Source: Actinomycetota bacterium
GTDB lineage: Bacteria; Actinomycetota; Actinomycetes; S36-B12
Direction of reading: 5' to 3'
Assembly: GCA_046046455.1 (NCBI GenBank)
Contig: JBJOJS010000054.1
Coordinates: 31,434-95,433, forward strand
Length of the DNA stretch: 64,000 nt
The position numbers and the translations under genes are program-made. Under the pieces are notes generated by a model. The model did no database searches, was not told the origin of the DNA, and was given only the letters and a program-made list of their open reading frames with translations. Of the stretch, positions 31,421-53,597 are shown piece after piece (the stretch's first letter is position 1; each line of letters begins with the position of its first letter).

Positions 31421-34136
31421 TGGGGTGTCCCGCGTCAGCGACGGGATGCGCAGATTCAGTAGCCGGAAGCGCTGGGTCGCTGGCGACCTGACCGCCGACG
31501 CCGGTGGCCATCGAAATCCAGACGAACCCCGCGCGCCTGAGGGCGTCGACATCGGCCTGCGAGCCGGCTTCAGCGATGAGGTGGGTGCCGCGCCTGGCCA
31601 GCGCTGAGGCGACCTGCTGGACCGAGAGCGGATCCAGTCCTGTGGGGCGCCGGTCCTTCCCGAGCGGGAAGACCAGGGCCCACGGGCTCCAGCCGATGAG
31701 GTCGTCGGGATCGGCTCCGGCTGCGGCGTCTGCGACGACGGCGATGCGCAATCCCCGATCCTCCAGGAGAGCGAAGGCCTGGCCCGAGCCATGCGGGACC
31801 GAGGAAACCACGATGACGGTCCGTGCCGCGTCGACGCGATCGAGCAGACGCCCTGCGATGTTGGGAAGGGCCGCAGCGCCGGCATCGGGCAGGAGCAGCA
31901 GGGCCGGTGCCGAGACGAGCACGGGCGCCCCCGTCGCCTCGGTGTCGCACAGGAGGGTACGGACTGCTGCCAGCGAACTGGCGGTGAATTCCACAGCCAG
32001 ATCGAGGCGATGTTCGGCCGCGTCCAGGAGTCGATGCGGGGTCCCGAGATCGAGGTCTCCGGGTGCGTGTGGCCATGACGCGTCGAGTTGGAGGGCGACA
32101 TCCTCCCGAGTGCGTGAGTCGATGATGCGGCGGAGAGCGAACTCCAGGCCCTGATCGGGTGTGCCTGCTTCGGCCAGTGCCTGTGCGAGGTCCGCTGTCG
32201 AGATCGTGGCTGAGCTGCCCGTGATGTCTTCCGGGGTGAAGTCGAGGTAGCCGAGGCTTTCGCCGAGGAGCGCCCGGCGGGTTGACCTGTCGCGGTCGAG
32301 CCGCTCGGCGGCGACCTCCATCAACTCGGGGAACGACACCGCGTCGACCTGATACGTGGCGTGACCGAGGGACACGCTCACGCTGACCTCGACGTCGACG
32401 CGTGCCGACGACACGGAGCCGTGATCGTTGATCCACTGCTGCAGGGCACGCAATTGAGTGGCGACGTGCCTGACGACGGGCCCACCCAGCAGCCCGATCC
32501 AGATTCGGCCGGCACCTTCGTACGCGACGAAGAGCTCCTCGCCCGCGAAGTCGGCGTTGCCCAGCACGGTTCGAATGACCTGGGCCACAGCCGCCTGCTC
32601 GAACTTGCCGCCGGCTAGTGCGCCGAACTCATCGATTTCGAGAACGGCTACGAGGAGCGAGCTCGTCTGGGTGGACTGGTCGGCCCGGTCGCGCAACCGA
32701 TCGCCTGCTTCATGGAAAGCGGACATCGTGGGCCAGCGCGATCGGTCGTCGAACATCAAATCAAAGGCGCGACTAGCGGAGAGGTAGTCCTGTGCCATGA
32801 CGGGGGAGAGCAATGCGAGCGTGGCGAGTTCGACGTACTCATCGACGATGTCGCGGGAGCGAATGAGGAAGGAGCCGGGGGCGAGCCACGAGCCGATAAC
32901 GATCCAGCCTTCGGCGTTGTCGCGATCGGGCCGGCCCAGGCGGATCTCGCGGTGAGGGCGTGCCGCCAGGTCCGTTGCCAGGGGCACGGGGCCGACGTCG
33001 TGTCGATCCAACCCGGCGAGGCTCGAGCGACGAGTTCCGTCCGGAAGCGTGATGTGCCCCATGGCGCGTGTGGCTCCGAAGGTCGCCAGAGCCACGCGGG
33101 TGGCCGTGGGAAGCGCAGCGCGTGCAGCGAGATCCGGGCTGAGCGATCCATCGGCGAGTCGGCGCACGATCTCGGCCTGGTGGGCTCGCCATGCCCCTAG
33201 CAGTACGCGCGCGTCATGGCGCCACCAGGCGATGGACGCGAGCCAGAGTGCCGCCCACGCGACGACCAGGACACCAAGGCCCGCGAGCCCAGCCGCGTCC
33301 TCTCGTCCCGGAGTCGTGGGCCCGGCTGTCGACGCGACCGCGACCGCAGCGGCGAAGGCCAGCCAGGCGACGAGGGCCGTGATCCCCGCGATGAGGAGGC
33401 GGCGTGGATCGATGGCATCGCGCAGGAATGCCCAGCGTTCGCTTGCCCCGGTCGCCCAGCGTTCTAGGGAATTGAGAGCCAGTTGCGAGTACAGCGCCAC
33501 CGTCACGGCCAGCAGGAGCGGCCAGATGGACATGCGATCGATGAGCAGGGGCGCGAGCGAGTAGACGATGAGATACGCGATGGCCGCTGCGGCGCCGGCC
33601 GAAAAGCTGGAGAAGATCGCGGAGAAGCGCATGTTGACGTCATGTCGCGGCGCGCGTCGGATCATGACGGCCGCGCGTGCGATCAAGCCGACGCCGATGA
33701 GAGAGATGGTGATGGCAGGTGGAGTGAGAACGCCGGCGAGGAGTGCTCCGACGAGCAGGGCGTCGAAAGTGATGGTCACTCGGTCCCAGGACCGGATCCG
33801 GCTGTCGTTCTCGGAGAAGAGGGTCCTGCTCCACGCCGCGGAACTCGTGCGGAACGTGGCTGCCGGGACCAGCGCCGCCAGGGAGAGGATGATCACTGAT
33901 CCGACGATGACGGCCAGGACATCCTCGTCGGCGGGAGCGGGCATCGGCAGGGTGAACGCGACCACGATCGCGGCTGCTGTCGCGACCAACCCGACCACGA
34001 TCGCGAGGGCGCCGGCGATGCCGGCGCGCAGATGCAGGACGGGCAGGCTGATCGAGGAGGCGTTCGGCGGCTGCGGGATGAGCCAGGAGCCGAGGGTGCG
34101 GAGGACCCGCGTTACGGGCTCGCGGGCCGACGTCAT
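31410..34136 (-). CDS. Multi-pass membrane protein with degenerate GGDEF and EAL domains
   Basis: Many N-terminal TM segments. GGDEF-like [12 protein letters not shown]...[11 protein letters not shown]...[11 protein letters not shown]-like [13 protein letters not shown]...ALQLDASW...LIAEAG...[14 protein letters not shown] 6 nt before ATG 34136. Confidence 0.7.
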
Positions 34137-41709: not shown

Positions 41710-41746
41710 GTCCCTCCCTCGGTGTGCGCGCGTGCCTTCGTGGACA

Positions 41747-41798
41747 GTATCGGCCGAAGCGGGCGCTCGTGGCGACCGCGGACCGAATGAGCCGATAC
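41747..41798. promoter_or_regulatory. Back-to-back sigma-28-type -10 elements for pilM (-) and the pilT-like operon (+)
   Basis: GCCGATAC on the minus strand at 41754-41747 and on the plus strand at 41791-41798. Confidence 0.68.
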
Positions 41799-41805
41799 TC
41801 CTCGC

Positions 41806-42921
41806 GTGACCCTGCCCACGGCCCCGGATCTACCGGTGACTCCCCGGAGCCTGGGCCCTCTCCTCGACCTCGCGGTTGCTTCCCGTGCGTCGGATCTGCA
41901 CCTGAAGGTCGGTGCGCCCCCGCGGCTTCGCATCGACGGAGTGCTCGTCAACCAGCCCGGCCTCCCTCTGACTCCGGGTGAGGTGCAGGCCATGATCGAG
42001 GAGGCCACGGGCGAGTCCCCCGACCACACCGGGCTCGACGACCTCGACTTCGCGGTAGACCTGCCTGGCGTCGGCCGTTTCCGGGGAAACGCCTTCAGAT
42101 CGCGGCGCGAGTGGGCCGTGGTGCTGCGCCATGTCCGCTCCGAGATTCCTACGGTCGAGGGTCTCGGTCTGCCCACCATCGTGCAGCGCTGGTGCGAGGC
42201 GACCTCCGGTCTCATCCTCGTGTGCGGGCCGACGGGCTCGGGTAAGTCCACGACCCTGGCGGCCATGGTCGGTCATATCAACGCTGCCCGTGCCTGCCAC
42301 ATCCTCACGATCGAGGATCCCGTCGAATTCCTCCACGCCGATCGCCGGGCGAGCGTGAGCCAACGTGAGGTCCACACCGATACCGCCGGCTTCGCCACGG
42401 CCTTGCGATCGGGGCTCCGCCAGGACCCTGACGTCATCCTCATCGGCGAGATCCGGGATGCCGAGACGATGCGCATCGCCCTGCATGCCAGCGAGAGCGG
42501 TCATCTCGTCCTCGCCACGCTGCATGCTGGCAGCGCCCTGGAGGCGGTCCACCGCGTCGTGAATCTCTTCCCGGCTGACGAGCAGAGCGTCGTTCGGGGG
42601 ATCCTTGCAGAGGCTCTGATCGGCGTTCTCTGCCAGCGCCTGGTGTGGTCGGACGCCCGGCATCGCCGCCAGGTGGTGTGCGAGGTGATGACGGGCACTC
42701 CGCGCACCCACGACGCCATCGCCGATGCCGCCAAGACGGCCGCTCTCCCGGACATCATTGCCGACGGAGATCATTACGGCATGCGTACGCTCATGCAGGA
42801 TGCCGCCCTCGCCGTGATCAGCGGCGACTTGACGGTCGCGGAGGCTGAATCGGTCGTGCCGCCCGGATCCGACCTGCGCGTGGTACTCCAGCGAGCCGGC
42901 TACCGGGGCGCAGATGTCTAG
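41806..42921 (+). CDS. PilT/PilU-family retraction ATPase (second copy)
   Basis: ASDLHL, GPTGSGKSTT, TIEDPVE, QREV, LRQDPDVILIGEIRD and GHLVLATLH; lacks AIRNLIRE. Confidence 0.88.
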   Translation: MTLPTAPDLPVTPRSLGPLLDLAVASRASDLHLKVGAPPRLRIDGVLVNQPGLPLTPGEVQAMIEEATGESPDHTGLDDLDFAVDLPGVGRFRGNAFRSRREWAVVLRHVRSEIPTVEGLGLPTIVQRWCEATSGLILVCGPTGSGKSTTLAAMVGHINAARACHILTIEDPVEFLHADRRASVSQREVHTDTAGFATALRSGLRQDPDVILIGEIRDAETMRIALHASESGHLVLATLHAGSALEAVHRVVNLFPADEQSVVRGILAEALIGVLCQRLVWSDARHRRQVVCEVMTGTPRTHDAIADAAKTAALPDIIADGDHYGMRTLMQDAALAVISGDLTVAEAESVVPPGSDLRVVLQRAGYRGADV

Positions 42922-44592: not shown

Positions 44593-45921
44593 ATGTCAGA
44601 TGACTCCTTCCGTCTGCCCATCACTGACGACGCACCGGTGTTCGCGCCCGTGCCGCCGCCGATCGCTCCGCCGCCGACCCCCCTCCCGGTCGCTGTGCCG
44701 AGCCTCCCGACCGCGCCGGATCTCCCCGTGGCCCCCGAGCCCGTGCGGCCCGCTCAGCGCATCGCTGATCCCCAGGCACCGGATCTGCCGACCGTGGGAG
44801 GCGATCGCGGTGTGACAGCCACCGCGGATGACTCCCAGGGCCCCGTGGCGCGACTGGAGGCGGCCCTGCTGGAGCTCCTCCGCCTGGGTGGGTCCGACCT
44901 CCATCTCAACGCCGGACTGCCGCCGATGGTCCGCGTCGATGGCGAACTCCAACCACTGAGCGGGTGGAATGCCCTCACCGCCCGCCAGGTGCTCGAGAGC
45001 GTCTACGCGATCCTGTCCAACCGGCAGAAGCAGCGATTCGAGGAAGAACGCGAACTCGACTTCGCCTACGAACTCACCGGCGCTGCGCGATTCCGTGTCA
45101 ACGCGATGTGGCAACGCGGATCCGTCAAGGCGACGCTGCGAGTGATCCCGTGGGACATCCTGCCGCTCGAAGCGCTGGGACTTCCCGAGGCGCTCGATGG
45201 TCTCGCCAGCCTCCCCCGCGGGCTCGTCCTTGTGACCGGGCCGACGGGTTCCGGCAAGTCCACCACCCTGGCTGCGGTGATCGATCGAATCAACCGCGAG
45301 AAGCACGGGCACATCATCACTGTCGAGGATCCCATCGAGTTCGTCCACGAGAGCCGCTCGAGCGTGGTGAGTCAGCGAGAGGTCGGCGATGACACCCCGA
45401 CCTTCGCGAGCGCCTTGAAGCACGCACTTCGCCAGGATCCTGACGTCATCCTGGTCGGCGAGATGCGTGATCTCGAGACGGTCTCGATCGCGCTGACCGC
45501 CGCTGAGACCGGCCACCTCGTCTTCGGCACGCTCCACACCAGTTCGGCGGCGAGCACGATCGACCGCATCATCGATGTCTTCCCACCCGAGCAGCAGGGC
45601 CAGATTCGCGCCCAACTGGCAGGTTCCCTCCAGGCGGTCGTGTGCCAGTCGCTGCTGCGGAAGTCATCCGGTGAGGGCCGGGTGGCGGCGACCGAAGTCA
45701 TGATCGTCACACCGGCCATCCGCAATCTCATCCGCGAAGGCAAGGTGCAATCCATTCCCTCGGCGTTGCAGACGGGATCTCGCCTGGGCATGCGCACCCT
45801 CAACCAGGATCTTGCGCGCCTGGTGAGCGAGGGTGTCATCACCTACGAGGCAGCGGCCGCGACCGCGAGCGACATCACCGAGCTCAACCAGATCCTGGGC
45901 ATGGACGATGGCACAGACTGA
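44593..45921 (+). CDS. pilT: Type IV pilus retraction ATPase
   Basis: GPTGSGKSTT, QREVG.DT, AAETGHLVFGTLHT and AIRNLIRE; Pro-rich N-terminal extension. Confidence 0.93.
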   Translation: MSDDSFRLPITDDAPVFAPVPPPIAPPPTPLPVAVPSLPTAPDLPVAPEPVRPAQRIADPQAPDLPTVGGDRGVTATADDSQGPVARLEAALLELLRLGGSDLHLNAGLPPMVRVDGELQPLSGWNALTARQVLESVYAILSNRQKQRFEEERELDFAYELTGAARFRVNAMWQRGSVKATLRVIPWDILPLEALGLPEALDGLASLPRGLVLVTGPTGSGKSTTLAAVIDRINREKHGHIITVEDPIEFVHESRSSVVSQREVGDDTPTFASALKHALRQDPDVILVGEMRDLETVSIALTAAETGHLVFGTLHTSSAASTIDRIIDVFPPEQQGQIRAQLAGSLQAVVCQSLLRKSSGEGRVAATEVMIVTPAIRNLIREGKVQSIPSALQTGSRLGMRTLNQDLARLVSEGVITYEAAAATASDITELNQILGMDDGTD

Positions 45922-47125
45922 CTACCGGGTCCGGGCTCGCTCCAAGCAGGGCAAGCTCGTCGAGCAGAAGATCAAGGCCTCCAGCGAGGGCGAGGCTGCC
46001 TCTCGCGTGCAGCAACTCGGACTCGTGCCCATCTCCATCGAGCCTCTCGGCAAGGGCCTCAATCGGGAGATTCGATTCGGGGCCGGCAAGGTCAAGACCA
46101 AGGACCTCGCCATCTTCGCTCGGCAGTTCTCCACCATGCTGGCGTCCGGATTGCCCATCCTGCGCTGCCTGTCCATCCTCAGCCAGCAGACCGAGTCCAC
46201 CCGGCTGCGTGAGCTCCTCGATCAGATGAGGGTGGAGGTCGAGAAGGGTTCAGCGCTGTCCGAGACGATGGCGCAGCGCAAGGAGTTTCCCCCGCTCATG
46301 GTCAGCATGACTCGTGCAGGCGAGGTGGGCGGTTTCCTCGACTCGACGATGCGCCAGATCGCCACCTCCCTCGAGGCGGATGTCAAGCTCCGGGGTCGCA
46401 TCAAGGCCGCGCTCACCTACCCGGTGGCCGTAGGCGTCATCGCGGTGTTGATCGTCACGGGGATGCTCATCTTCGTGGTGCCTGTCTTCGCCTCGATGTT
46501 CGACTCATTCGGTGGCACGCTGCCCTTGCCCACCCAGGTGCTCGTGACGCTGTCGAATCTCATCAAGGACCCCCGCTTCTTCGTACCGTTGCTGGCGGCC
46601 ATCGTGATCGGCGTCTTCCTCTATCGGCGCAACGCTCGCAATCCACGACTGCGAGCCGTGGTGGACCCGCTGAAGTTCAAGATCCCGGTCTTCGGGTCGC
46701 TTCTCAAGAAGGTCGCCATCGCGCGATTCACACGGAACCTGTCGTCCCTGCTCGCGGCCGGCGTCCCGATCCTCACCTCCCTCGACATCGTGGCGGATAC
46801 GTCGGGCAATGCCGTGATCGCCAACGCCGTCGGCGAAGTGAAGGAAAGCGTCCGCCAAGGCAGCGGAATCGCCAAGCCCCTCGAAGCCGAAGGGGTCTTC
46901 CCGGACATGGTGGTCCAGATGATCTCCGTGGGCGAGTCGACCGGATCCCTCGACGAGATGCTGGCCCGGATCGCCGACTTCTACGACCAGGAGGTCGAGG
47001 CGACCACGGAGCAGTTGACGGCCCTGATCGAGCCGATCATGATCGTGGTCCTCGGCGGGGTGGTGGGGGCCATGATCATCGCTCTCTACCTGCCGATCTT
47101 CTCGATTTTCGACCTCATCAAGTGA
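45908..47125 (+). CDS. pilC: Type IV pilus platform protein
   Basis: FARQFSTML.SGLP, AGEVGG.LD, ALTYP, GESTGSLD, LIEP and YLPIF. Confidence 0.94.
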   Translation: MAQTDYRVRARSKQGKLVEQKIKASSEGEAASRVQQLGLVPISIEPLGKGLNREIRFGAGKVKTKDLAIFARQFSTMLASGLPILRCLSILSQQTESTRLRELLDQMRVEVEKGSALSETMAQRKEFPPLMVSMTRAGEVGGFLDSTMRQIATSLEADVKLRGRIKAALTYPVAVGVIAVLIVTGMLIFVVPVFASMFDSFGGTLPLPTQVLVTLSNLIKDPRFFVPLLAAIVIGVFLYRRNARNPRLRAVVDPLKFKIPVFGSLLKKVAIARFTRNLSSLLAAGVPILTSLDIVADTSGNAVIANAVGEVKESVRQGSGIAKPLEAEGVFPDMVVQMISVGESTGSLDEMLARIADFYDQEVEATTEQLTALIEPIMIVVLGGVVGAMIIALYLPIFSIFDLIK

Positions 47126-47245
47126 GGTTCGGATCACGTGAGGTTCAGCCTCCCGGGAACTTCTGCGAATTCGGTCCGATACCCAGGTCAGCGGGTCGAG
47201 TGACCCCTCCCGGCAGTCCCGGGCACGAAGATTTGGGAGTCGACG

Positions 47246-47692
47246 ATGTTCGCTCGCGTCGCAGCAGTCCGCGAAGCCCGGGCCAAGGGGGAGTCCGGCT
47301 TCACCCTCATTGAGCTCCTCGTGGTGGTCGCCATCATCGGCATCCTGGCCGCCATCGCCATTCCGTTCTTCCTCAACCAGCGCAACTCCGCTCGCGATGC
47401 GTCCGTGGAGTCCGATATTCGGAACGCCGCCACCTCACTCGAGACGGCATACACCCGGGATGGCGTCTATCCGGCCACCGGAACCGATCTCACCTCGGCG
47501 CCCTACGCGGTCAACGTCTCACAGGGCAATGGCCTGGCCGTGACCGTGGCCGCCAGCGGCTCCTCCTACGTGATCGTCGGCTGCAACTCCGAGTCCGAGA
47601 CGGTCTTCTACTTCGATTCCGCCGCCAGCGGCTTCGGGGATGCGCCGGCAGGGACAGCCTGCCCGGCGAGCGGCATCAGCATCACCAACTAG
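47246..47692 (+). CDS. pilA: Major type IVa pilin
   Basis: KGESG|FTLIELLVVVAIIGILAAIAIP; C-terminal Cys pair; own TCCGATAC element (47175-47182) and terminator. Confidence 0.88.
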   Translation: MFARVAAVREARAKGESGFTLIELLVVVAIIGILAAIAIPFFLNQRNSARDASVESDIRNAATSLETAYTRDGVYPATGTDLTSAPYAVNVSQGNGLAVTVAASGSSYVIVGCNSESETVFYFDSAASGFGDAPAGTACPASGISITN

Positions 47693-47713
47693 AGCAGCAT
47701 CACGAACGACGTG

Positions 47714-47743
47714 GCGGGGGTCGGCCGAAAGGCCGCCCCCCGC
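47714..47743 (+). terminator. Hairpin after pilA
   Basis: GCGGGGGtCGGCC-GAAA-GGCCGcCCCCCGC. Confidence 0.72.
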
Positions 47744-47805
47744 ATAGTCGATTCACCGCGAAATCGGGCCAGGGGGAGCACTAGACTCCTCATCGGGAGG
47801 TCGCC

Positions 47806-48270
47806 ATGACGTCAGTCGCGCAGGCACCGAAGACTCGTATATCGAAGTCCGGAGCATCCATGCCGGTCGCGATCGATCCGCGCTCCGTCGCGGACCTGGG
47901 TTTCGAACGCCACATCGATGTCGCACTGCGACTCCACATTCCCCGCGACCAGGCGGTCCTGGCCGCCCGAGCTCTCGGTGCCTTCATCGCCGACACGGAA
48001 GGCTTCGCTGCCCGCGTCGCCGGCCTCGACGTGGCTGCCGACCGCACCGACATCACGCTGGCCGTTTCCCTGGGCACGACGGAGCAGATCCGCTCGAGCG
48101 CCGATGCGTCGGTCCGAGCACTCCGATCGCTCACTCGACTCGTCGACTCGATGAGTCACTACGCGCCTGCATTCGTCTCGATACCGGCGCCTGAATCCGC
48201 CGAGGCCCGCGCTGCTGCCAGCCTGGTGGCCGGAGCCGACTCCTTCGCCTGGATCTCCGCGACCGCCTGA
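47806..48270 (+). CDS. Hypothetical protein, first gene of the sigma operon
   Basis: RBS GGAGG at 47796-47800, -10 TAGACT at 47782-47787; stop 2 nt before the sigma ATG. Confidence 0.72.
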   Translation: MTSVAQAPKTRISKSGASMPVAIDPRSVADLGFERHIDVALRLHIPRDQAVLAARALGAFIADTEGFAARVAGLDVAADRTDITLAVSLGTTEQIRSSADASVRALRSLTRLVDSMSHYAPAFVSIPAPESAEARAAASLVAGADSFAWISATA

Positions 48271-48272
48271 CC

Positions 48273-49367
48273 ATGGCCGGCGAGTCGGTCGGTGATGACG
48301 AGGAGATCATCACCGCAGGCAACCGCCGCGGTCGTCGTCTGCCGGACCTCGTCGTCGATGGGCTCGACGAACACGAGATCTTCAGCTTCGCCCCCGTCAT
48401 GCGGTGCGATCGCATCTACTGGGGCACCTCAGATCCCATCGATCTGCGTGCGCTGCTGAGCGATCTCGGTCCGCAGGCATGGACCCGCCAGTGGAGCGAC
48501 GGCCTCTGCCGGGTATGGGTGCCCGAAGGCAACGGGGAGCATGCGCGTGAACGCATCCGTGCCTGGTGCGAGGAGCGAGACATCGAGCCTGTCAACCTCC
48601 GCGTGGAGTCCGGTGTTGCCTTCCGAGACCTCGATCTGATCCCGTCAGGCCTCCTACCCGCTTTGATCGCGGCATGCGTCGACTGGCTCTATCCGCATAC
48701 GTCGTCGATCCAGCGACGCCTCGTGGCCGAACTTCCCGGCGTAGATGACGACGACGTGCGAGGCATGATGTATCTCTTCGTGCACGACCTCGCGGATCGT
48801 TTCGACTCCGACCGACAGGGTCGCAATGGCGCCCTCAACTTCACCGCGTTCGCGCTCGGCAAGATCCGGACGTGGCCGCAGGATGCGGCGCGGTCGGTCC
48901 ACGGGAGAGTGCTCGCCAATGATCGTGCGGCCCTCGGCAAGCTGGCGGCCGCCATCGCGGCCCAGGAGGGGCGTGCGGCGACGGAAGCTGAGCGCGCAGA
49001 AGCGCTCGGAGTTGGCATCACCGAACTCCGTAAGCGCGAGGAAGCGGTGCAGGGACTCATGCGACTGCGCCATATGGACCCCATCCTCGAACCCGACGAT
49101 GTCCAGATGGCGAGCAGTACTGACCGCGACGTTGCGGACGAGGCTCTGGATGCCATCCTGCGGTCGGACCTCACTCGCGAGTTGCTGCGGGCTGTCGATC
49201 CTGGCGATGGCAGGGCTGATCCCCTAGGGCTCGCGGCCGTCTACCTGGGATTCTGGGAGGGCCTTGGCAGGTCTGAGATCGCAGACGAGTTGGGTGTCAG
49301 TCCCAAGACAGTCTCCTCTGCTATGGCAAGGACCCTGCGCGATATCGACGCGAGCAGGTTCGCATGA
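48273..49367 (+). CDS. Divergent FliA/WhiG-like sigma-70 factor with an N-terminal extension
   Basis: Region 2: RRLVAELPGVDDDD...DLADRFD...FTAFALGKIR....DAAR. Region 3: EGRAATEAERAEALGV. Region 4: LGFWEGLGRSEIADELGVSPKTVS. Confidence 0.78.
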   Translation: MAGESVGDDEEIITAGNRRGRRLPDLVVDGLDEHEIFSFAPVMRCDRIYWGTSDPIDLRALLSDLGPQAWTRQWSDGLCRVWVPEGNGEHARERIRAWCEERDIEPVNLRVESGVAFRDLDLIPSGLLPALIAACVDWLYPHTSSIQRRLVAELPGVDDDDVRGMMYLFVHDLADRFDSDRQGRNGALNFTAFALGKIRTWPQDAARSVHGRVLANDRAALGKLAAAIAAQEGRAATEAERAEALGVGITELRKREEAVQGLMRLRHMDPILEPDDVQMASSTDRDVADEALDAILRSDLTRELLRAVDPGDGRADPLGLAAVYLGFWEGLGRSEIADELGVSPKTVSSAMARTLRDIDASRFA

Positions 49368-50068
49368 CCGCCGACGCCGTCCCCTGGATCTTCACCGACG
49401 AGCCAGGACTCCTGCAGTGGGCATGGGTCACCGACCACTTCATGGCGCGCATCAGTGCGGTGCAGGCGGGTGTAGGCGCGGATGGGCAGAGGCTCATCAG
49501 GTCCATGCATTGGGAGTTGGCCGATCGGATGAGGCTCCAGCAGGGTGTGCCCCGGCTGCTCATCGAGGGAGACGCGCGGAGCTTCGACGAGGCCGAGTCG
49601 GCGCTGCGTGAGCACGTCGCCAAGTGCTACGACCCACGCCTCGGCTACCGCCGCTACGCGGGTGCTCTGGCCTTCACCTTCGAACTCTCGAGCGGCGAGC
49701 GCGTCGACGTGTCCCGCTACATCGGACGCGAGGTCACCGTGACCGTGCTCCAGGCCGGTGGCGAGCGCACCACGGTGCGCGGCGACTTCGACGTCTCCGG
49801 ATATCGCTGGCGGGTCCGTGGCACCGACTCCGTCTACGACGTGGTCCCCGAGCACGCGGTGAGCATCAGCGACCGATCCGTCTTCGCCCAGGAGGCCGAG
49901 GAACTCGTGCGCCCAGCCTCCTACTCGGGGGTCGGCCGCATCTACCGGGAGGATCCGCGCCCCGGATGCACCGGCACACCGGGCTTCCTCTCGCAGACAG
50001 TGGACCACGCCGGCCGCCCGCGGTGCCCCCTGCATGAACGTGACCTACCTGACCATGTTCTGCACTGA
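49364..50068 (+). CDS. Hypothetical protein coupled to the sigma gene, with a C-terminal Cys/His cluster
   Basis: ATGA overlap with the sigma stop; GC3-rich codons; C-x12-H-x5-C-x2-H near the C-terminus. Confidence 0.78.
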   Translation: MTADAVPWIFTDEPGLLQWAWVTDHFMARISAVQAGVGADGQRLIRSMHWELADRMRLQQGVPRLLIEGDARSFDEAESALREHVAKCYDPRLGYRRYAGALAFTFELSSGERVDVSRYIGREVTVTVLQAGGERTTVRGDFDVSGYRWRVRGTDSVYDVVPEHAVSISDRSVFAQEAEELVRPASYSGVGRIYREDPRPGCTGTPGFLSQTVDHAGRPRCPLHERDLPDHVLH

Positions 50069-50091
50069 TGACCATGTTCTGCACTGATGAC
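50050..50091. repeat. 19-bp tandem duplication spanning the stop codon
   Basis: TGACCATGTTCTGCACTGA at 50050 and 50069, followed by TGAC. Confidence 0.92.
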
Positions 50092-50167
50092 ACTGTGCCC
50101 TCGTCCGGCCTCATGCGAGGCTGGTGGAGATCGATGGCCGAATGAGCCGATACCGGAGGGGAGACTC

Positions 50168-50917
50168 ATGAAGAGGAGGAACCCCGTGGAGTCGACGTTC
50201 GCCGTCGCCGTGGATTTCGCGTCATCGACGGTGGGTCGCGCACTGCACGAGGCCAGTGCCGATGGCTTCGATGGGGCGCTGGCCTTCTCCGGGTCGGCCT
50301 CGGGTCGGATCTACTGCTTCGAGGGCTCCGCCTACGCGGCGGAGGTCGAGGGGTTCACGCCTGATGTCGAGCGGCGACTCGTGACGTCAGGGGCATTGAC
50401 CGCAGGCGATAGTCCTCGAGCGGCGGTGACCGCCATGCGCCTTACCCCCGAGGCGCTTGCCTCGGTGAACCAGGAGTTCCTCCTCGCGCTGCTGGGGCGT
50501 CTCGCCGAACTACCGGGGTTGGCGGTGGCCCGGCTCCCGCAGGTGGTCACGGCCGAGGGCTGCACGCTGCCCATCCCCTTCGAGTCACTGGTCGAGGTGA
50601 TTCGCCTGCGCCAGGTGCGTTCGATCGAGGATCTGAGTCATGTGGGGGGTGCGGCGTCCGCGCAGGTGGTGCTCGCGCAGCGGGGGGACATGCCGACCGG
50701 ACTGCCGGAACTCAGTGCGCTGTGGACAGCGCTGGGCGACGGCAGCGAACTCGACGCTGCTGCTGCCGCCTGTGGCCTGTCCCGAGCGGAGGCTCTCCAT
50801 CTGGCCGCCAACCTCCTGCGCCAGGAGGCGGCGACGGTCATTTCCACGTGGCCGCGGGTCTCAGGGCCGCCGGCGGTCCCCGAAGCAGTAGGGGCGGGAC
50901 CGGGCCGGAGAGCCTGA
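50168..50917 (+). CDS. DUF4388/PatA-N-like protein
   Basis: ALHEAS..GFDGALAF....SGRIYCFEGSAYAAE......ERRLVTSGALT; helix-turn-helix-like C-terminus; GCCGATAC (50146) and GGAGG upstream. Confidence 0.62.
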   Translation: MKRRNPVESTFAVAVDFASSTVGRALHEASADGFDGALAFSGSASGRIYCFEGSAYAAEVEGFTPDVERRLVTSGALTAGDSPRAAVTAMRLTPEALASVNQEFLLALLGRLAELPGLAVARLPQVVTAEGCTLPIPFESLVEVIRLRQVRSIEDLSHVGGAASAQVVLAQRGDMPTGLPELSALWTALGDGSELDAAAAACGLSRAEALHLAANLLRQEAATVISTWPRVSGPPAVPEAVGAGPGRRA

Positions 50918-51030
50918 TCCTGACGGTGAGCCGATACTAGAACTAGGGCACCACCGGAGTAGGACAGCACGTCAGAACCGCAGTGGCGACGTATGTCACC
51001 GCGAAGATTGCCGAGAGGAGGGGTGGATCA

Positions 51031-51441
51031 ATGCGCGCGTGGATTGGGCACGATGCCGACGCGACCACTCTCCTGCGCACCGGCATGGGCGTGGTCACCG
51101 CAGTTGCGGAGGCGCCTCGCGCGTACGCCGACAGTGGCGCATCATCACTGGTCGAGATTGCCGTAAGCGCCGTCACGCCGAAGGCGATCCGGGTGACCGT
51201 CAAGGCGACGTGTCCGAGGGGCAGCGAGTTGGCCCTGCGCGCGGCGCACCTTGCCGAGACGGGCGAGGAGGTCGCCTGGCTCGTCGAGTGGCGTCGACTG
51301 CCGGGGGTCCCCCCGCAGATCCCGATCACCGATCTCCAACTCCGCACCGATGCTTCCGCGGTGCTGCTGGCGCTGGCGGGCGCCGAATCGGAGTTCTCCG
51401 ACGAGTCCGTGGGAGAGTGGGCACGGGGCTCGGCCTCATGA
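51031..51441 (+). CDS. Hypothetical protein
   Basis: RBS GAGGAGG before ATG 51031; GCCGATAC at 50930; ATGA overlap with the next ORF. Confidence 0.62.
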   Translation: MRAWIGHDADATTLLRTGMGVVTAVAEAPRAYADSGASSLVEIAVSAVTPKAIRVTVKATCPRGSELALRAAHLAETGEEVAWLVEWRRLPGVPPQIPITDLQLRTDASAVLLALAGAESEFSDESVGEWARGSAS

Positions 51442-51722
51442 GCGACCCCGGCAAGTCCCCCTTCCGGGCGGTGCCGCAGGACAGGGTTCTTGCCGACGGC
51501 CGCCAATTCGGGTCCGATGACTCCGGAATCGACTTCTTCGCCGATGCACTTGCCCGGCCGCATACCGACGCCGAAGCGGTCTTCGCCGCAGGGGTGGCGG
51601 CAATGGGCGGGACCGGATCCGCCCAGGGCTGGGTGGCCTTCCGCGGTGACCTCTCCGCCGATCCGGCCGCTCGTGCCGCCTTCATCCTGCATGGCCCGGC
51701 CGGAGTGCGTCGCGAGAACTGA
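51438..51722 (+). CDS. Small hypothetical protein (94 aa)
   Basis: 3' part of ORF 51039..51722; ATG overlaps the previous stop. Confidence 0.55.
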   Translation: MSDPGKSPFRAVPQDRVLADGRQFGSDDSGIDFFADALARPHTDAEAVFAAGVAAMGGTGSAQGWVAFRGDLSADPAARAAFILHGPAGVRREN

Positions 51723-51816
51723 CCCTCGATCGCCCTCCTCGGCAGACTCCTGCTCTATCCGCCGATACCCTGGAGGTGTCCGCTGACGGCACCGACGGCC
51801 CGGAGGGAGCGCCTTC

Positions 51817-53259
51817 ATGAGCTCTCCTGCGGACGCCGCGCGCGTGATTGTCGTCAGCGAGAGCGCAGATGATGTGCAGATCCTGGAGGCGGTCCCCGCA
51901 GACTGGACTCTCCAGCCTGCCGTCCACACGCTGGCTGCGATGTGGCAGGGATTGTCGTCGGGGACCCTCGACACTCAGTCGCGCATCCTCTTCTTCTCGG
52001 ACTCGCTTGCTGCGAATGGCACTGACGACGCCGCGAGCCTGATCCGGGCGGTAGCCCGCATGGCCGAGGCAGGCGCGACCGTGATCGTTCTGAGCCACGG
52101 TGACACGACAAGTTCGATCGCTGAAGCCGCCCGATCGTCGTTGACGCCACCGGCCAAGGGTTCGATTCAGGACGTCTCAGCCGAGGCCCTGCGTCGCGAT
52201 CCAGCAATCCTGGCGTCCGTCCTACCCGGGGTGGTCAGGGTCACGTCAGGTCCCGCGCCTGTCGGCGTGCGACCGGCCATGCCGGAGTTGGCGCCGGTCG
52301 ACGCTCCGGTCGTCGATGCGGCGGCTGTCGTGCGCGACGAACTGCCCGAGCAAGCCGATCGTGCTCTCCTCGCGCGTCCGCGTCGGCCCGGGCAGGTGAC
52401 GATCACCGTGACGTCGAGCAAGGGGGGCTCGGGTAAATCGACGGCGTCGATCCTGCTCTCGGCTGCCATCGCTCGGGCGTCGGCGGAGGCGGGCAAGCCT
52501 CTTTCGGTCTGCCTCATCGACCTCGACACCCGTGACGGCCAGGTGGCCTCCATGATCGGTCAGTTCATGCCGACCGCCCTCAATGTGCGGATCCAGCCGA
52601 TGTGGGATGAGGAGCGGATTCGCCGCAACCTCGTGCCCGCTCCCTCCCTGGGCATCGAGACGCTCCTGGCCCCCATTCGTCCTCGTACGGCCCAGACCGT
52701 AGGTCCGGACTTCTATCGGACGATCGTCCGGAGCCTCCAGCGCATGTTCGACGTCGTGGTGATGGATACCAGCGTCCAGTATCTCGATCCCCTCATCGCC
52801 GATGTGGCTCTCGTGGAGGCCGATGAGGTGCTCTTCGTCACCAACCTTGCTGCCACGGCGGTCCAGGGAATGGCACGCGCACTGAGGGAGATCACGGCGC
52901 CTGTCGACGAATCGGGCCTCGGCATTCCCCGCGAAAAACTCGGCATCATCGTCAACCAGTCCGTCGCCGACGTGGGTATGGGGCGCGATCAGGTGCTCGC
53001 CGCGGGCCTCGGCGTCCCGGTCGTCGGGGTCATTCCCCTAGCGACGAGGGATGTGCTGTCGGCGACCAACCTCAATCGGATGCAGGAACTCCTCGATCAC
53101 CCGGTGGTGGGTCCGGCCTATGCCGATCTCGCGATGGCGTGCCTGCCGGACCAGGCTCTCAAGGCTTGGCCCATAGACACCCCGGCCGAGCCGGAGCCGT
53201 CGGCGTCGGATGAACCGCCGAAGGATGAGCGACGTTCGCTCTTCCGGAGGAGTTCGTGA
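51817..53259 (+). CDS. MinD/ParA (CpaE/TadZ-like) ATPase with a receiver-like N-terminus
   Basis: Deviant Walker A SKGGSGKST, CLIDLD, DVVVMDT and GIIVNQ; C-terminal RRSLFRRSS; GCCGATAC at 51761. Confidence 0.83.
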   Translation: MSSPADAARVIVVSESADDVQILEAVPADWTLQPAVHTLAAMWQGLSSGTLDTQSRILFFSDSLAANGTDDAASLIRAVARMAEAGATVIVLSHGDTTSSIAEAARSSLTPPAKGSIQDVSAEALRRDPAILASVLPGVVRVTSGPAPVGVRPAMPELAPVDAPVVDAAAVVRDELPEQADRALLARPRRPGQVTITVTSSKGGSGKSTASILLSAAIARASAEAGKPLSVCLIDLDTRDGQVASMIGQFMPTALNVRIQPMWDEERIRRNLVPAPSLGIETLLAPIRPRTAQTVGPDFYRTIVRSLQRMFDVVVMDTSVQYLDPLIADVALVEADEVLFVTNLAATAVQGMARALREITAPVDESGLGIPREKLGIIVNQSVADVGMGRDQVLAAGLGVPVVGVIPLATRDVLSATNLNRMQELLDHPVVGPAYADLAMACLPDQALKAWPIDTPAEPEPSASDEPPKDERRSLFRRSS

Positions 53260-53597
53260 CCGGGGGTCCACTCGACCGGGCTGCCTTCGCCACTTTCGCC
53301 CTGTCGCAGAACCTGCCGATGGGACTCATCGAGGAGGGAGCTCGGGAAGGGCGACTGCCCCTCTCTGAGCGGCACACCCCGGAGTGGTTCGCGGCAGCAG
53401 CCGAAGAGCACGCCTCTCTCCTCGACATGGCTCCTGAACTCCGAGCCGGTGACGACTCACCTGGGCAGCGCGACCTCGTCGGCATCTACGGCGGCGGGGG
53501 ACAGGGCTTGCCCACGACCCCGGAGCCACCGGTTCGGGCCGGTTCGGACAGCATCCGCATCGGCCTCCTGCGCGAACTCGAGGGCTTGGACGACTGA
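53256..53597 (+). CDS. Small hypothetical protein coupled to the ATPase gene
   Basis: GTGA overlap; ends in amphipathic IGLLRELEGLDD. Confidence 0.6.
   Translation: MTGGPLDRAAFATFALSQNLPMGLIEEGAREGRLPLSERHTPEWFAAAAEEHASLLDMAPELRAGDDSPGQRDLVGIYGGGGQGLPTTPEPPVRAGSDSIRIGLLRELEGLDD

Follow-up and report, generated by a model that had tools for sequence, protein, structure and literature searches.

Control of type IV pili by the sigma factor WhiG is a recent theme in Actinomycetota. For Rubrobacter, the accessible part of one study documents that the type IV pilus cluster has WhiG-dependent promoters of the TAAA/GCCGATAA type (PMC8325347), and in the portion available of a 2026 preprint, the WhiG regulons predicted across the phylum take in type IV pili (bioRxiv 10.64898/2026.01.14.699351). 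For the sigma28 of P. aeruginosa, the sections available of PMC12784957 have Y76 stacking on the flipped -11A, R80 touching -12G, D87 touching -12/-13 and R97 touching the GC at -15/-14, with S224 and Q228 as the -35 readers. Here we describe SIG, a gene for a divergent WhiG/FliA-like sigma-family protein that sits within a type IV pilus cluster on a 64,000-nucleotide (nt) stretch of DNA from an Actinomycetota bacterium (the window; positions 31,434 to 95,433 of the forward strand of contig JBJOJS010000054.1, GenBank assembly GCA_046046455.1). We favour, with some reserve, the reading that SIG is an alternative sigma factor dedicated to the pilus promoters of this cluster, derived from sigma28/WhiG or sister to them, with a changed -35 element. 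No description of the SIG protein family was found in the literature searched, and in the accessible text of the 2026 preprint (bioRxiv 10.64898/2026.01.14.699351) 'N-terminal' and 'Nanopelagic' have 0 occurrences each.

The gene encodes 364 amino acids (aa) and has the following position.

48273..49367, + strand: SIG, divergent WhiG/FliA-like sigma-family gene, with homologues and with profile, fold and hidden Markov model (HMM) matches to group-3 sigmas

A protein database search returned 169 homologues of SIG at E≤1e-3. Among the matches listed (the best 120 of 169) they are 345–407 aa long and 48–100% identical, nearly all are unnamed or 'hypothetical', and they come from metagenome-assembled genomes (MAGs) of Nanopelagicales/Actinomycetes. 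An alignment of 36 sequences (A1; 46–76% identity) runs full length, N-terminal part included, with 50 invariant columns and a mean column identity of 59%. Weak family scores and a GC content at third codon positions (GC3) of 0.75, slightly below that of neighbouring genes, might point to a decaying or spurious open reading frame (ORF), either a high-GC artefact or a pseudogene whose resemblance to sigma factors is residual. Against this stand the invariant columns of the alignment, synteny kept in 51 related loci (all from one family of a Nanopelagicales-like order), a confident AlphaFold2 (AF2) model and 75 sequence clusters of the family at E≤1e-10. The conservation data refute such a reading in practice and leave it next to no probability: the ORF is real and strongly conserved. 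One homologue, in locus L025, has a single in-frame stop on translation of its N-terminal part (L025:7652-8002), which may reflect an error in sequencing, a pseudogene or a shift of frame in the coordinates used.

The body of SIG (aa ~126–364) has a three-domain sigma-70-family architecture that is nearest to WhiG, FliA and SigD by profile and predicted fold. In the AF2 model of the full-length protein (predicted local distance difference test (pLDDT) 80, predicted template modelling score 0.58) an alpha/beta domain at aa ~8–120 is followed by a helical body at aa 127–363. Foldseek searches with this body return the model of B. subtilis SigD first, then WhiG and FliA (2e-5 to 5e-4), and chains of sigmaS, SigB and sigmaA at lower ranks, with 7 matches at E≤1e-3. 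The profile of A1, searched against PDB, finds S. venezuelae WhiG (6pfv/6pfj, 8.6e-5 and 1.4e-4), sigmaF (1l0o, 1.7e-4) and E. coli FliA (6pmi, 1.7e-4). The order and fold of sigma2, sigma3 and sigma4 are present, HMM alignments cover regions 2.2–4.2, and the sigma2-sigma3-linker-sigma4 layout, including an acidic linker, is kept in the model.

Scans with the single sequence score low. Pfam reports Sigma70_r4_2 alone, at 25.8 bits against a cut-off of 25.7 (aa 322–357), and no match to Sigma70_r2. The best NCBIfam match is SigF (PRK07122, 2.1e-8, aa 156–357), which is near full length and far under its cut-off; SigBFG (TIGR02980, 3.3e-7, 30.3 bits against a curated cut-off of 234.35) and FliA_WhiG (TIGR02479, 1.1e-6, aa 146–348, 28.6 bits against 189.6) do not reach theirs either. 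Regions 2–4 are recognisable through these weak Pfam and NCBIfam matches together with the profile and fold matches. The preliminary description of this DNA had called SIG a divergent FliA/WhiG-type sigma-70-family protein, with regions 2, 3 and 4 recognisable and an extra N-terminal domain, and by profile and fold it was right, though the regions are only weakly apparent from sequence. The HMM search that it proposed gave Sigma70_r4_2 at threshold, no Sigma70_r2, and TIGR02479 far from its cut-off.

SIG differs in distinct ways from each of the described families. It shares with WhiG of Actinomycetota (6PFJ/6PFV) the three-domain group-3 layout and the Asp/Arg pair that reads the -10 element; WhiG is the top profile match among solved structures and among the best by fold, and pilus genes with a GCCGATAA-like -10 are linked to both proteins (for WhiG, in the accessible part of PMC8325347). 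Unlike WhiG, SIG adds a ~120-aa N-terminal domain, lacks the GxxGL and DWxPR motifs, has a 5-aa insertion in the specificity loop and a different sigma4 recognition helix, and forms a clade apart from the canonical whiG genes that share clusters with it; the promoters are without TAAA. The FliA/sigma28/SigD group (6PMI, 9WSM from P. aeruginosa, Aquifex 1RP3 and the SigD model 9A7S) matches the fold of SIG at 2e-5 to 1e-3, and counterparts of FliA Y70, R74, R76, D81, R84 and R91 are retained; in contrast to that group, SIG has no flagellar context, does not keep the -35 readers S224/Q228, faces a G-rich -35, carries the N-terminal domain and has no recognised FlgM-like partner. SigB/SigF/SigG (TIGR02980; sigmaF 1L0O) include the best single-sequence match, yet in the SigB/F/G example that was aligned, region 2.4 has no D..R pair, and no anti-sigma kinase or STAS context occurs in the SIG cluster.

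The residues expected to read the -10 element are kept in SIG, and the surrounding loops are remodelled.

48648..48968, + strand: sigma2-like domain (aa ~126–232), with -10-reading residues F193, K197, R199, D204, R207 and R212 kept in alignments to WhiG and E. coli FliA
48813..48833, + strand: insertion after RFD (GRNGxL, aa 181–187) in the specificity loop, a predicted beta-hairpin opposite a 5-residue gap in WhiG/FliA
49134..49367, + strand: sigma4-like domain (aa ~288–364) with a helix-turn-helix and the recognition helix PKT(A/V)xxA, from Pfam Sigma70_r4_2 (aa 322–357) and alignment

E. coli FliA Y70, R74, R76, D81, R84 and R91 correspond in the alignments to SIG F193, K197, R199, D204, R207 and R212. 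An inferred offset of 6 residues relates P. aeruginosa Y76, R80, D87 and R97 to E. coli Y70, R74, D81 and R91. In the MAFFT alignment SIG K197-I-R-T-W-P-Q-D204-A-A-R207 lies over E. coli FliA R-I-R-G-A-M-L-D81-E-L-R84, the pairing put forward in the preliminary description, and HMM alignment to 6pmi_F likewise sets D204 opposite D81. K197, D204 and R207 are invariant in the SIG alignment (D204 and R207 in 36/36 homologues), and F193, R199 and R212 are at least 90% conserved. The changes noted there around these residues were equally borne out by the alignments. The insertion after RFD consists of five residues, GRNGx, of which G183, N185 and G186 are invariant; the AF2 model has strands at 181–187, and the insertion belongs to the loop that in sigma28 makes the pocket for -11A. 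The S-x-D-W-x-P-R segment at the junction of regions 2.4 and 3.0 is replaced by S-x-x-G-R, with 3–5 residues deleted.

In region 4.2 the helix-turn-helix is present (helices 317–328, 333–340 and 344–356 in the AF2 model). The sequence of its recognition helix is PKT(A/V)xxA instead of SxSRVxQ, with P344 and K345 conserved, and SIG therefore has no counterpart of P. aeruginosa S224/Q228.

Region 2.2 departs from the core-binding sequence of sigma factors as well. The motif D-L-x-Q/S-x-G-x-x-G-L-x-x-A is not kept; the SIG segment is D-V-R-G/S-M-M-Y-L-F-V-H/S-D, with both glycines replaced family-wide, so that the G..GL common to the WhiG, FliA and SigB/F rows gives way to bulky MMYLFV. Loss of this motif and of DWxPR would suit a sigma-derived protein that is no longer an RNA polymerase subunit and acts on the same promoters as a DNA-binding regulator through its sigma2/sigma4 surfaces, or serves as a decoy or adaptor for an anti-sigma-like partner such as the product of the neighbouring orf154. 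Scores far under all curated cut-offs, a long branch separate from all canonical group-3 sigmas, and an extra N-terminal domain with two co-translated partners of no known family point the same way. We nonetheless consider loss of the subunit role unlikely. The holoenzyme -10 readers, including the aromatic residue that stacks on the flipped -11A, are conserved or invariant, the full layout with its acidic linker is retained, and genomes without WhiG have no other sigma28-like protein for the conserved CCGAWAC promoters described below. As a dedicated alternative sigma, SIG would bind the RNA polymerase core; we infer this, as well as its promoter specificity and regulation, from sequence.

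The -10 element that such a sigma would read recurs in front of the pilus genes. Unbiased 7-mer counts compared upstream regions with the loci's own background. CCGATAC was found upstream of orf152 in 27/32 regions (1.0 expected), CCGAAAC upstream of the pilin gene in 31/40 (0.95 expected) and of the pilT-like gene in 21/33 (0.76 expected), and GCCGATA upstream of pilM in 16/26 (0.71 expected). Aligned on CCGAWA, the sites form a sigma28-type -10, YGRKCCGAWAC, upstream of four transcription units, in which CCGAWA matches positions -14 to -9 of GCCGATAA. A G-rich element (GGGTTCA or GGGGCC) lies ~17 nt upstream of the CCGAWA sites. The copies in the window are these.

47172..47182, + strand: CGGTCCGATAC, candidate -10 of the pilin promoter, from CCGAAAC enrichment and aligned sites
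41788..41798, + strand: TGAGCCGATAC, followed after 7 nt by the GTG start of the pilT-like ATPase gene, from CCGAAAC enrichment
41745..41755, - strand: GGCCGATACTG, upstream of pilM, from GCCGATA enrichment
50927..50937, + strand: TGAGCCGATAC, upstream of orf152, from CCGATAC enrichment
50143..50153, + strand: TGAGCCGATAC repeated exactly for a third time, within what is annotated as the 5' part of orf276, with an internal ATG (50168) following after 14 nt; lineage-specific

The copy within orf276 shows no enrichment across loci; its distance from the ATG at 50168 suggests that the real start of orf276 lies there. At the pilT-like gene the start codon falls at +14 to +16 in 19–23 of 24 aligned sites, 7–8 nt after the motif, a fixed spacing that gives the geometry of a leaderless transcript.

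The window contains 13 copies of GCCGATA where 5.35 would be expected, a count reached in 0/100 shuffles. In the window's own assembly (G000; a MAG of 2.95 Mb, 68% GC and 144 contigs, 94.8% complete) the strict motif has 32 sites. By crude, GC3-based gene calls, 9 of them fall between genes, and for 4 of those 9 a gene starts within 200 nt downstream; 3 of these 4 are in the SIG cluster. The complete, single-contig genome G116 has 26 strict sites (19 in a reversed-pattern control), 4 of them in the 17-kb locus, and 3 of those 4 are the pilin, pilT-like and pilM promoters. Rare across the genome and concentrated in the cluster, the motif gives the regulon a cluster-centred look.

The -35 element tells a different story from that of WhiG promoters, in which TAAA occupies this position: it was found there in 0/90 aligned promoter sites. 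Lost -35 readers in SIG and the lack of TAAA in the promoters are two facts that fit each other. GGGTTCA occurs at -35 in 21/38 sites of whiG-containing loci and 0/52 of whiG-lacking loci, where the element is GGGGCC-like; this difference is confounded with phylogeny, since it is seen in one genus. Covariation of the SIG recognition helix with the -35 variant gave no clear pattern, and phylogeny confounds that comparison too. The preliminary description had inferred that SIG drives the pilus genes. The pilus transcription units do carry sigma28-type -10 motifs, by enrichment and by aligned sites, and these together with the kept -10 readers speak for the inference.

The same promoters could instead be served by a canonical WhiG, which is the case in Rubrobacter, or by some other sigma, with SIG having another target set or modulating WhiG. 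A canonical whiG (TIGR02479, 222–236 bits) does lie inside the pilus cluster in 13/51 loci, which amounts to 10/29 when only loci spanning the site are counted. It is encoded on the opposite strand, with orf152 on one side and the MinD-like ATPase gene on the other.

L009:12811-13662, - strand: canonical whiG, at the same place in L004-L007, L013, L016, L018, L021, L022, L029, L036 and L047

The TIGR02479 cut-off is passed in 5/38 genomes tested of the bacterial family in which SIG occurs, all of one genus and all carrying SIG, and the GGGTTCA variant accompanies whiG-containing loci. WhiG control of pilus clusters in Rubrobacter and the wide prediction of such regulons (PMC8325347 and bioRxiv 10.64898/2026.01.14.699351, in their accessible parts) also favour this assignment. 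Set against it, the CCGAWAC promoters are intact and the motif equally conserved without whiG, in 19/29 spanning loci and in 13/18 SIG-positive genomes, TAAA is lacking throughout, and the GGGTTCA difference is the phylogenetically confounded one. We therefore hold WhiG ownership of these promoters to be quite unlikely.

A canonical whiG elsewhere in the genome had been named in advance as a possible refutation of a SIG-driven regulon. One was found in the 13 loci above, yet none in the window, where the gap between orf152 and the ATPase gene at the whiG place measures only ~375 nt, nor in G180 (97% complete and congeneric with the source of the window) or G116. In most SIG genomes no canonical WhiG was found. 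The only match in G180 is of principal-sigma type, and the remaining group-3 sigmas of G116 are all of SigB/F/G type. In G000, TIGR02479 matches SIG alone and tblastn with a WhiG found nothing.

SIG is confined to a narrow lineage at close range and has distant kin beyond it. It is carried by 18/48 genomes of one family, G000 included, and by 0/153 genomes of nine other families of the same order. A phylum-wide sample with the SIG profile, scoring 4 candidates per genome, gave 0/400 other genomes at E≤1e-12, and a class-wide sample with a Blastococcus homologue gave only genomes of family f1 and one partial match to a 303-aa frame. This homologue (WP_200492754.1, P0234, 358 aa) aligns with SIG over 338 aa, N-terminal domain included, at 27% identity (E 9e-26). 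It scores 25.5 bits with FliA_WhiG, far below the cut-off, and its RefSeq name, 'flagellar biosynthesis protein FliA', is an automatic annotation and not a tested function. Unlike SIG it lacks the GRNG insertion, and its source is a cultured genus that does not belong to the Nanopelagicales-like family.

A profile search of 1.84 billion representatives returned 108 clusters at E≤1e-3. Many of them have lengths of 420–570 aa and carry additional N-terminal sequence that matches no Pfam family, and one distant cluster includes the Blastococcus protein. Pfam scans of 10 longer members (499–680 aa) and of P0234 gave a sub-threshold Sigma70_r3 in 3/11 and nothing in the extra N-terminal stretches. 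Nine distant members were scanned against NCBIfam (seven long forms, one of 338 aa and one of 397 aa); FliA_WhiG was the best match in 5/9, at 1e-6 to 1e-11, and the other four had no match at the 1e-5 threshold. A quick maximum-likelihood tree of 46 rows unites SIG (12 rows) and distant members (10 rows) in one clade with an approximate likelihood ratio support (SH-aLRT) of 100, apart from canonical WhiG, FliA and SigBFG. The group-3 phylogeny that had been called for thus yields a separate clade, though the search was quick, the tree has no outgroup and SIG is not placed by it.

The N-terminal domain is the second distinctive part of the protein.

48273..48647, + strand: N-terminal ferredoxin-like domain of no known family (aa 1–125, folded core ~20–120), from the AF2 model, Foldseek, VIA and PDB profile searches

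Modelled alone by AF2, it reaches a pLDDT of 84 overall and 83–97 over aa 21–125, with the order beta-alpha-beta-beta-alpha-beta; in the full-length model pLDDT is 88–95 over aa 21–50 and 81–140. Across 24 sequences, 23 of its columns are invariant. An alpha/beta domain ahead of region 2, as initially proposed, is thus well supported by model and conservation. The predicted fold is a generic ferredoxin-like one, and no specific structural relative was found: the best Foldseek match has E 0.047 (an aspartate kinase ACT domain), an exhaustive VIA search peaks at Z 7.7 for MzrA, followed at Z 6–7 by chains of acylphosphatase, ACT and PII-like proteins, all in the range of a common fold, a PDB profile search gives a best E of 0.3, and Atlas feature scores are all below 0.8. 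The nearest Atlas structural cluster consists of 356-aa actinobacterial proteins auto-named 'FliA', which are probably kin of SIG. Models and conservation together mark it as a genuine domain that can be assigned to no family; a role as sensor or autoinhibitor, suggested from the outset, is conjecture.

SIG is embedded between two ORFs with which it would be co-translated.

47806..48270, + strand: orf154, upstream partner ORF of 154 aa that belongs to no known family and ends 2 nt ahead of SIG
49364..50068, + strand: orf234, downstream ORF of 234 aa, no Pfam family, in 46/51 loci, its start sharing ATGA with the SIG stop
47713..47742, + strand: GC-rich hairpin 3' of pilin, likely a terminator without a T-run (fold of 47701-47745, -32.4 kcal/mol)
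47782..47787, + strand: TAGACT, candidate housekeeping-type -10 of the orf154-SIG operon, 18 nt before the orf154 ATG

The ATG of SIG lies 2 nt past the stop of orf154. The two genes adjoin in 44/51 loci, including 3 loci without other cluster genes. orf154 has no Pfam relative, and a PDB profile search with it found nothing below E 0.1; by Atlas structure it is ferredoxin-like (TM score 0.5–0.6). Comparison of orf154 with the N-terminal domain of SIG by hhalign showed no relationship (probability 0.1). Hairpins like that of the window also occur 3' of pilin in related loci; a T-run-based terminator scan of 47100-48300 called none, the pilin hairpin included.

A housekeeping-type -10 at 47782 had been proposed for this operon. 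TAGACT is indeed at 47782-47787, but a promoter there is plausible in the window only: the hexamer recurs upstream of orf154 in two near relatives alone (L035 and L039), and other loci carry AGCCGGNTATATCC or a CCGATAC motif in its place. A consensus sigma70 scan of 47100-48300 called no full promoter at TAGACT, because no -35 matched. Upstream of orf154, a conserved element AGCCGG(N)TATATCC is found in one clade (L005-L007, L009, L013, L016, L022, L029, L031 and L047), and a CCGAWAC motif in L024-L028 and L044, where it would imply autoregulation. The lower-GC loci L020, L023 and L043 have orf154-SIG only, with the rest of the pilus cluster absent nearby. Directly 3' of SIG these three encode a membrane protein of 266–268 aa (L020:9095-9895, L023:1516-2316 and L043:1866-2672) that, from its N-terminus read by eye, looks like a prepilin peptidase.

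The cluster as a whole keeps one order in the 51 related loci: pilM on the minus strand, then pilT-like ATPase, pilB, pilT, pilC, pilin, orf154, SIG, orf234, orf276, orf152, MinD/ParA-like ATPase and orf113. Genes other than SIG, present in all 51, were counted in 26 (pilM), 35 each (pilT-like, pilB, pilT), 38 (pilC), 40 (pilin), 44 (orf154), 46 (orf234), 45 (orf276), 32 (orf152), 34 (MinD/ParA-like ATPase) and 33 (orf113) loci, counts that are affected by the many loci ending at contig ends.

40597-41709, - strand: pilM (Pfam PilM_2)
41806-42921, + strand: pilT-like ATPase gene with GTG start, heading pilT-like/pilB/pilT/pilC (Pfam T2SSE)
47246-47692, + strand: pilin
50087-50917, + strand: orf276
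50983-51441, + strand: orf152
51817-53259, + strand: MinD/ParA-type ATPase of 480 aa (AAA_31/CbiA at aa 195–410) with a ~190-aa N-terminal extension, closing the cluster
53256-53597, + strand: orf113, an ORF of 113 aa; the ATPase and orf113 end the cluster as a pair in 33–34/51 loci

The MinD/ParA-type ATPase is possibly a CpaE/TadZ-like positioning ATPase. The PilT-type ATPase at 44593-45921 (+ strand) has a Pro/Ala-rich N-terminal extension of ~80 aa before its T2SSE domain (aa 82–364).

One freshwater metatranscriptome holds contigs identical to parts of the cluster: 47445-47707 (the 3' end of pilin), 48047-48250 (orf154), 51022-51219, 51631-51799 and 52643-52968, the last three with matches that include orf152 and ATPase genes. 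These are contigs, which carry no strand, starts or levels, and the library may contain DNA; they give a weak hint that organism and cluster are active. One RNA contig joins window positions 42449 and 45497, with 35 foreign letters where the window has 3047 nt; its most probable source is the paralogous ATPase gene of another organism and not a real deletion.

Several of these observations weigh against SIG as the dedicated pilus sigma. It misses every curated sigma family cut-off by a wide margin, its top single-sequence NCBIfam match is SigF and not FliA/WhiG, and the region 2.2 core-binding motif is gone. The tree, having no outgroup, does not place the SIG clade within the sigma28 lineage. 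A canonical whiG inside 13 of the clusters could read the same -10, and absence of whiG from G000 is weak evidence: this assembly contains five ECF-like (extracytoplasmic function) region-2 matches and SIG, with no SigB/F-type gene and not even a principal (SigA/HrdB-type) sigma gene, so that at least one essential sigma gene is missing from it. No contig of the freshwater metatranscriptome covers SIG.

The reading of SIG as a dedicated sigma is nevertheless the most economical. Its sigma2 domain would read YGRKCCGAWAC before pilM, the pilT-like/pilB/pilT/pilC operon, the pilin gene and orf152, and its altered sigma4 helix would read the G-rich -35 (GGGTTCA or GGGGCC, ~17 nt upstream) and not TAAA. 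In the window the orf154-SIG-orf234 operon would probably be transcribed from its own housekeeping-type promoter at TAGACT, and the N-terminal domain, with the co-translated 154-aa partner, may control the activity of SIG or its hold on RNA polymerase. A bolder proposal, which we regard as possible and lean somewhat against, is that SIG founds a new sigma subfamily in which a sigma28/WhiG body lost its core-binding glycine motif and gained a ferredoxin-like domain, the latter and orf154 gating the sigma or re-anchoring it on RNA polymerase. SIG would then have taken over an ancestral WhiG-to-pilus regulon with a changed -35, coexisting with canonical whiG in one genus.

If SIG acts in this way, abundant uncultured freshwater actinobacteria would have a separate lineage of sigma factors devoted to a pilus cluster, with sigma and promoter defined in silico as a pair. 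The question is testable at the bench, since a 27%-identical homologue, auto-named FliA, is encoded in cultured Blastococcus. SIG would also be a rare group-3-type sigma in which a folded domain has been added at the N-terminus and the core-binding helix remodelled, and these two features make it useful for asking how sigma factors are rewired and regulated.

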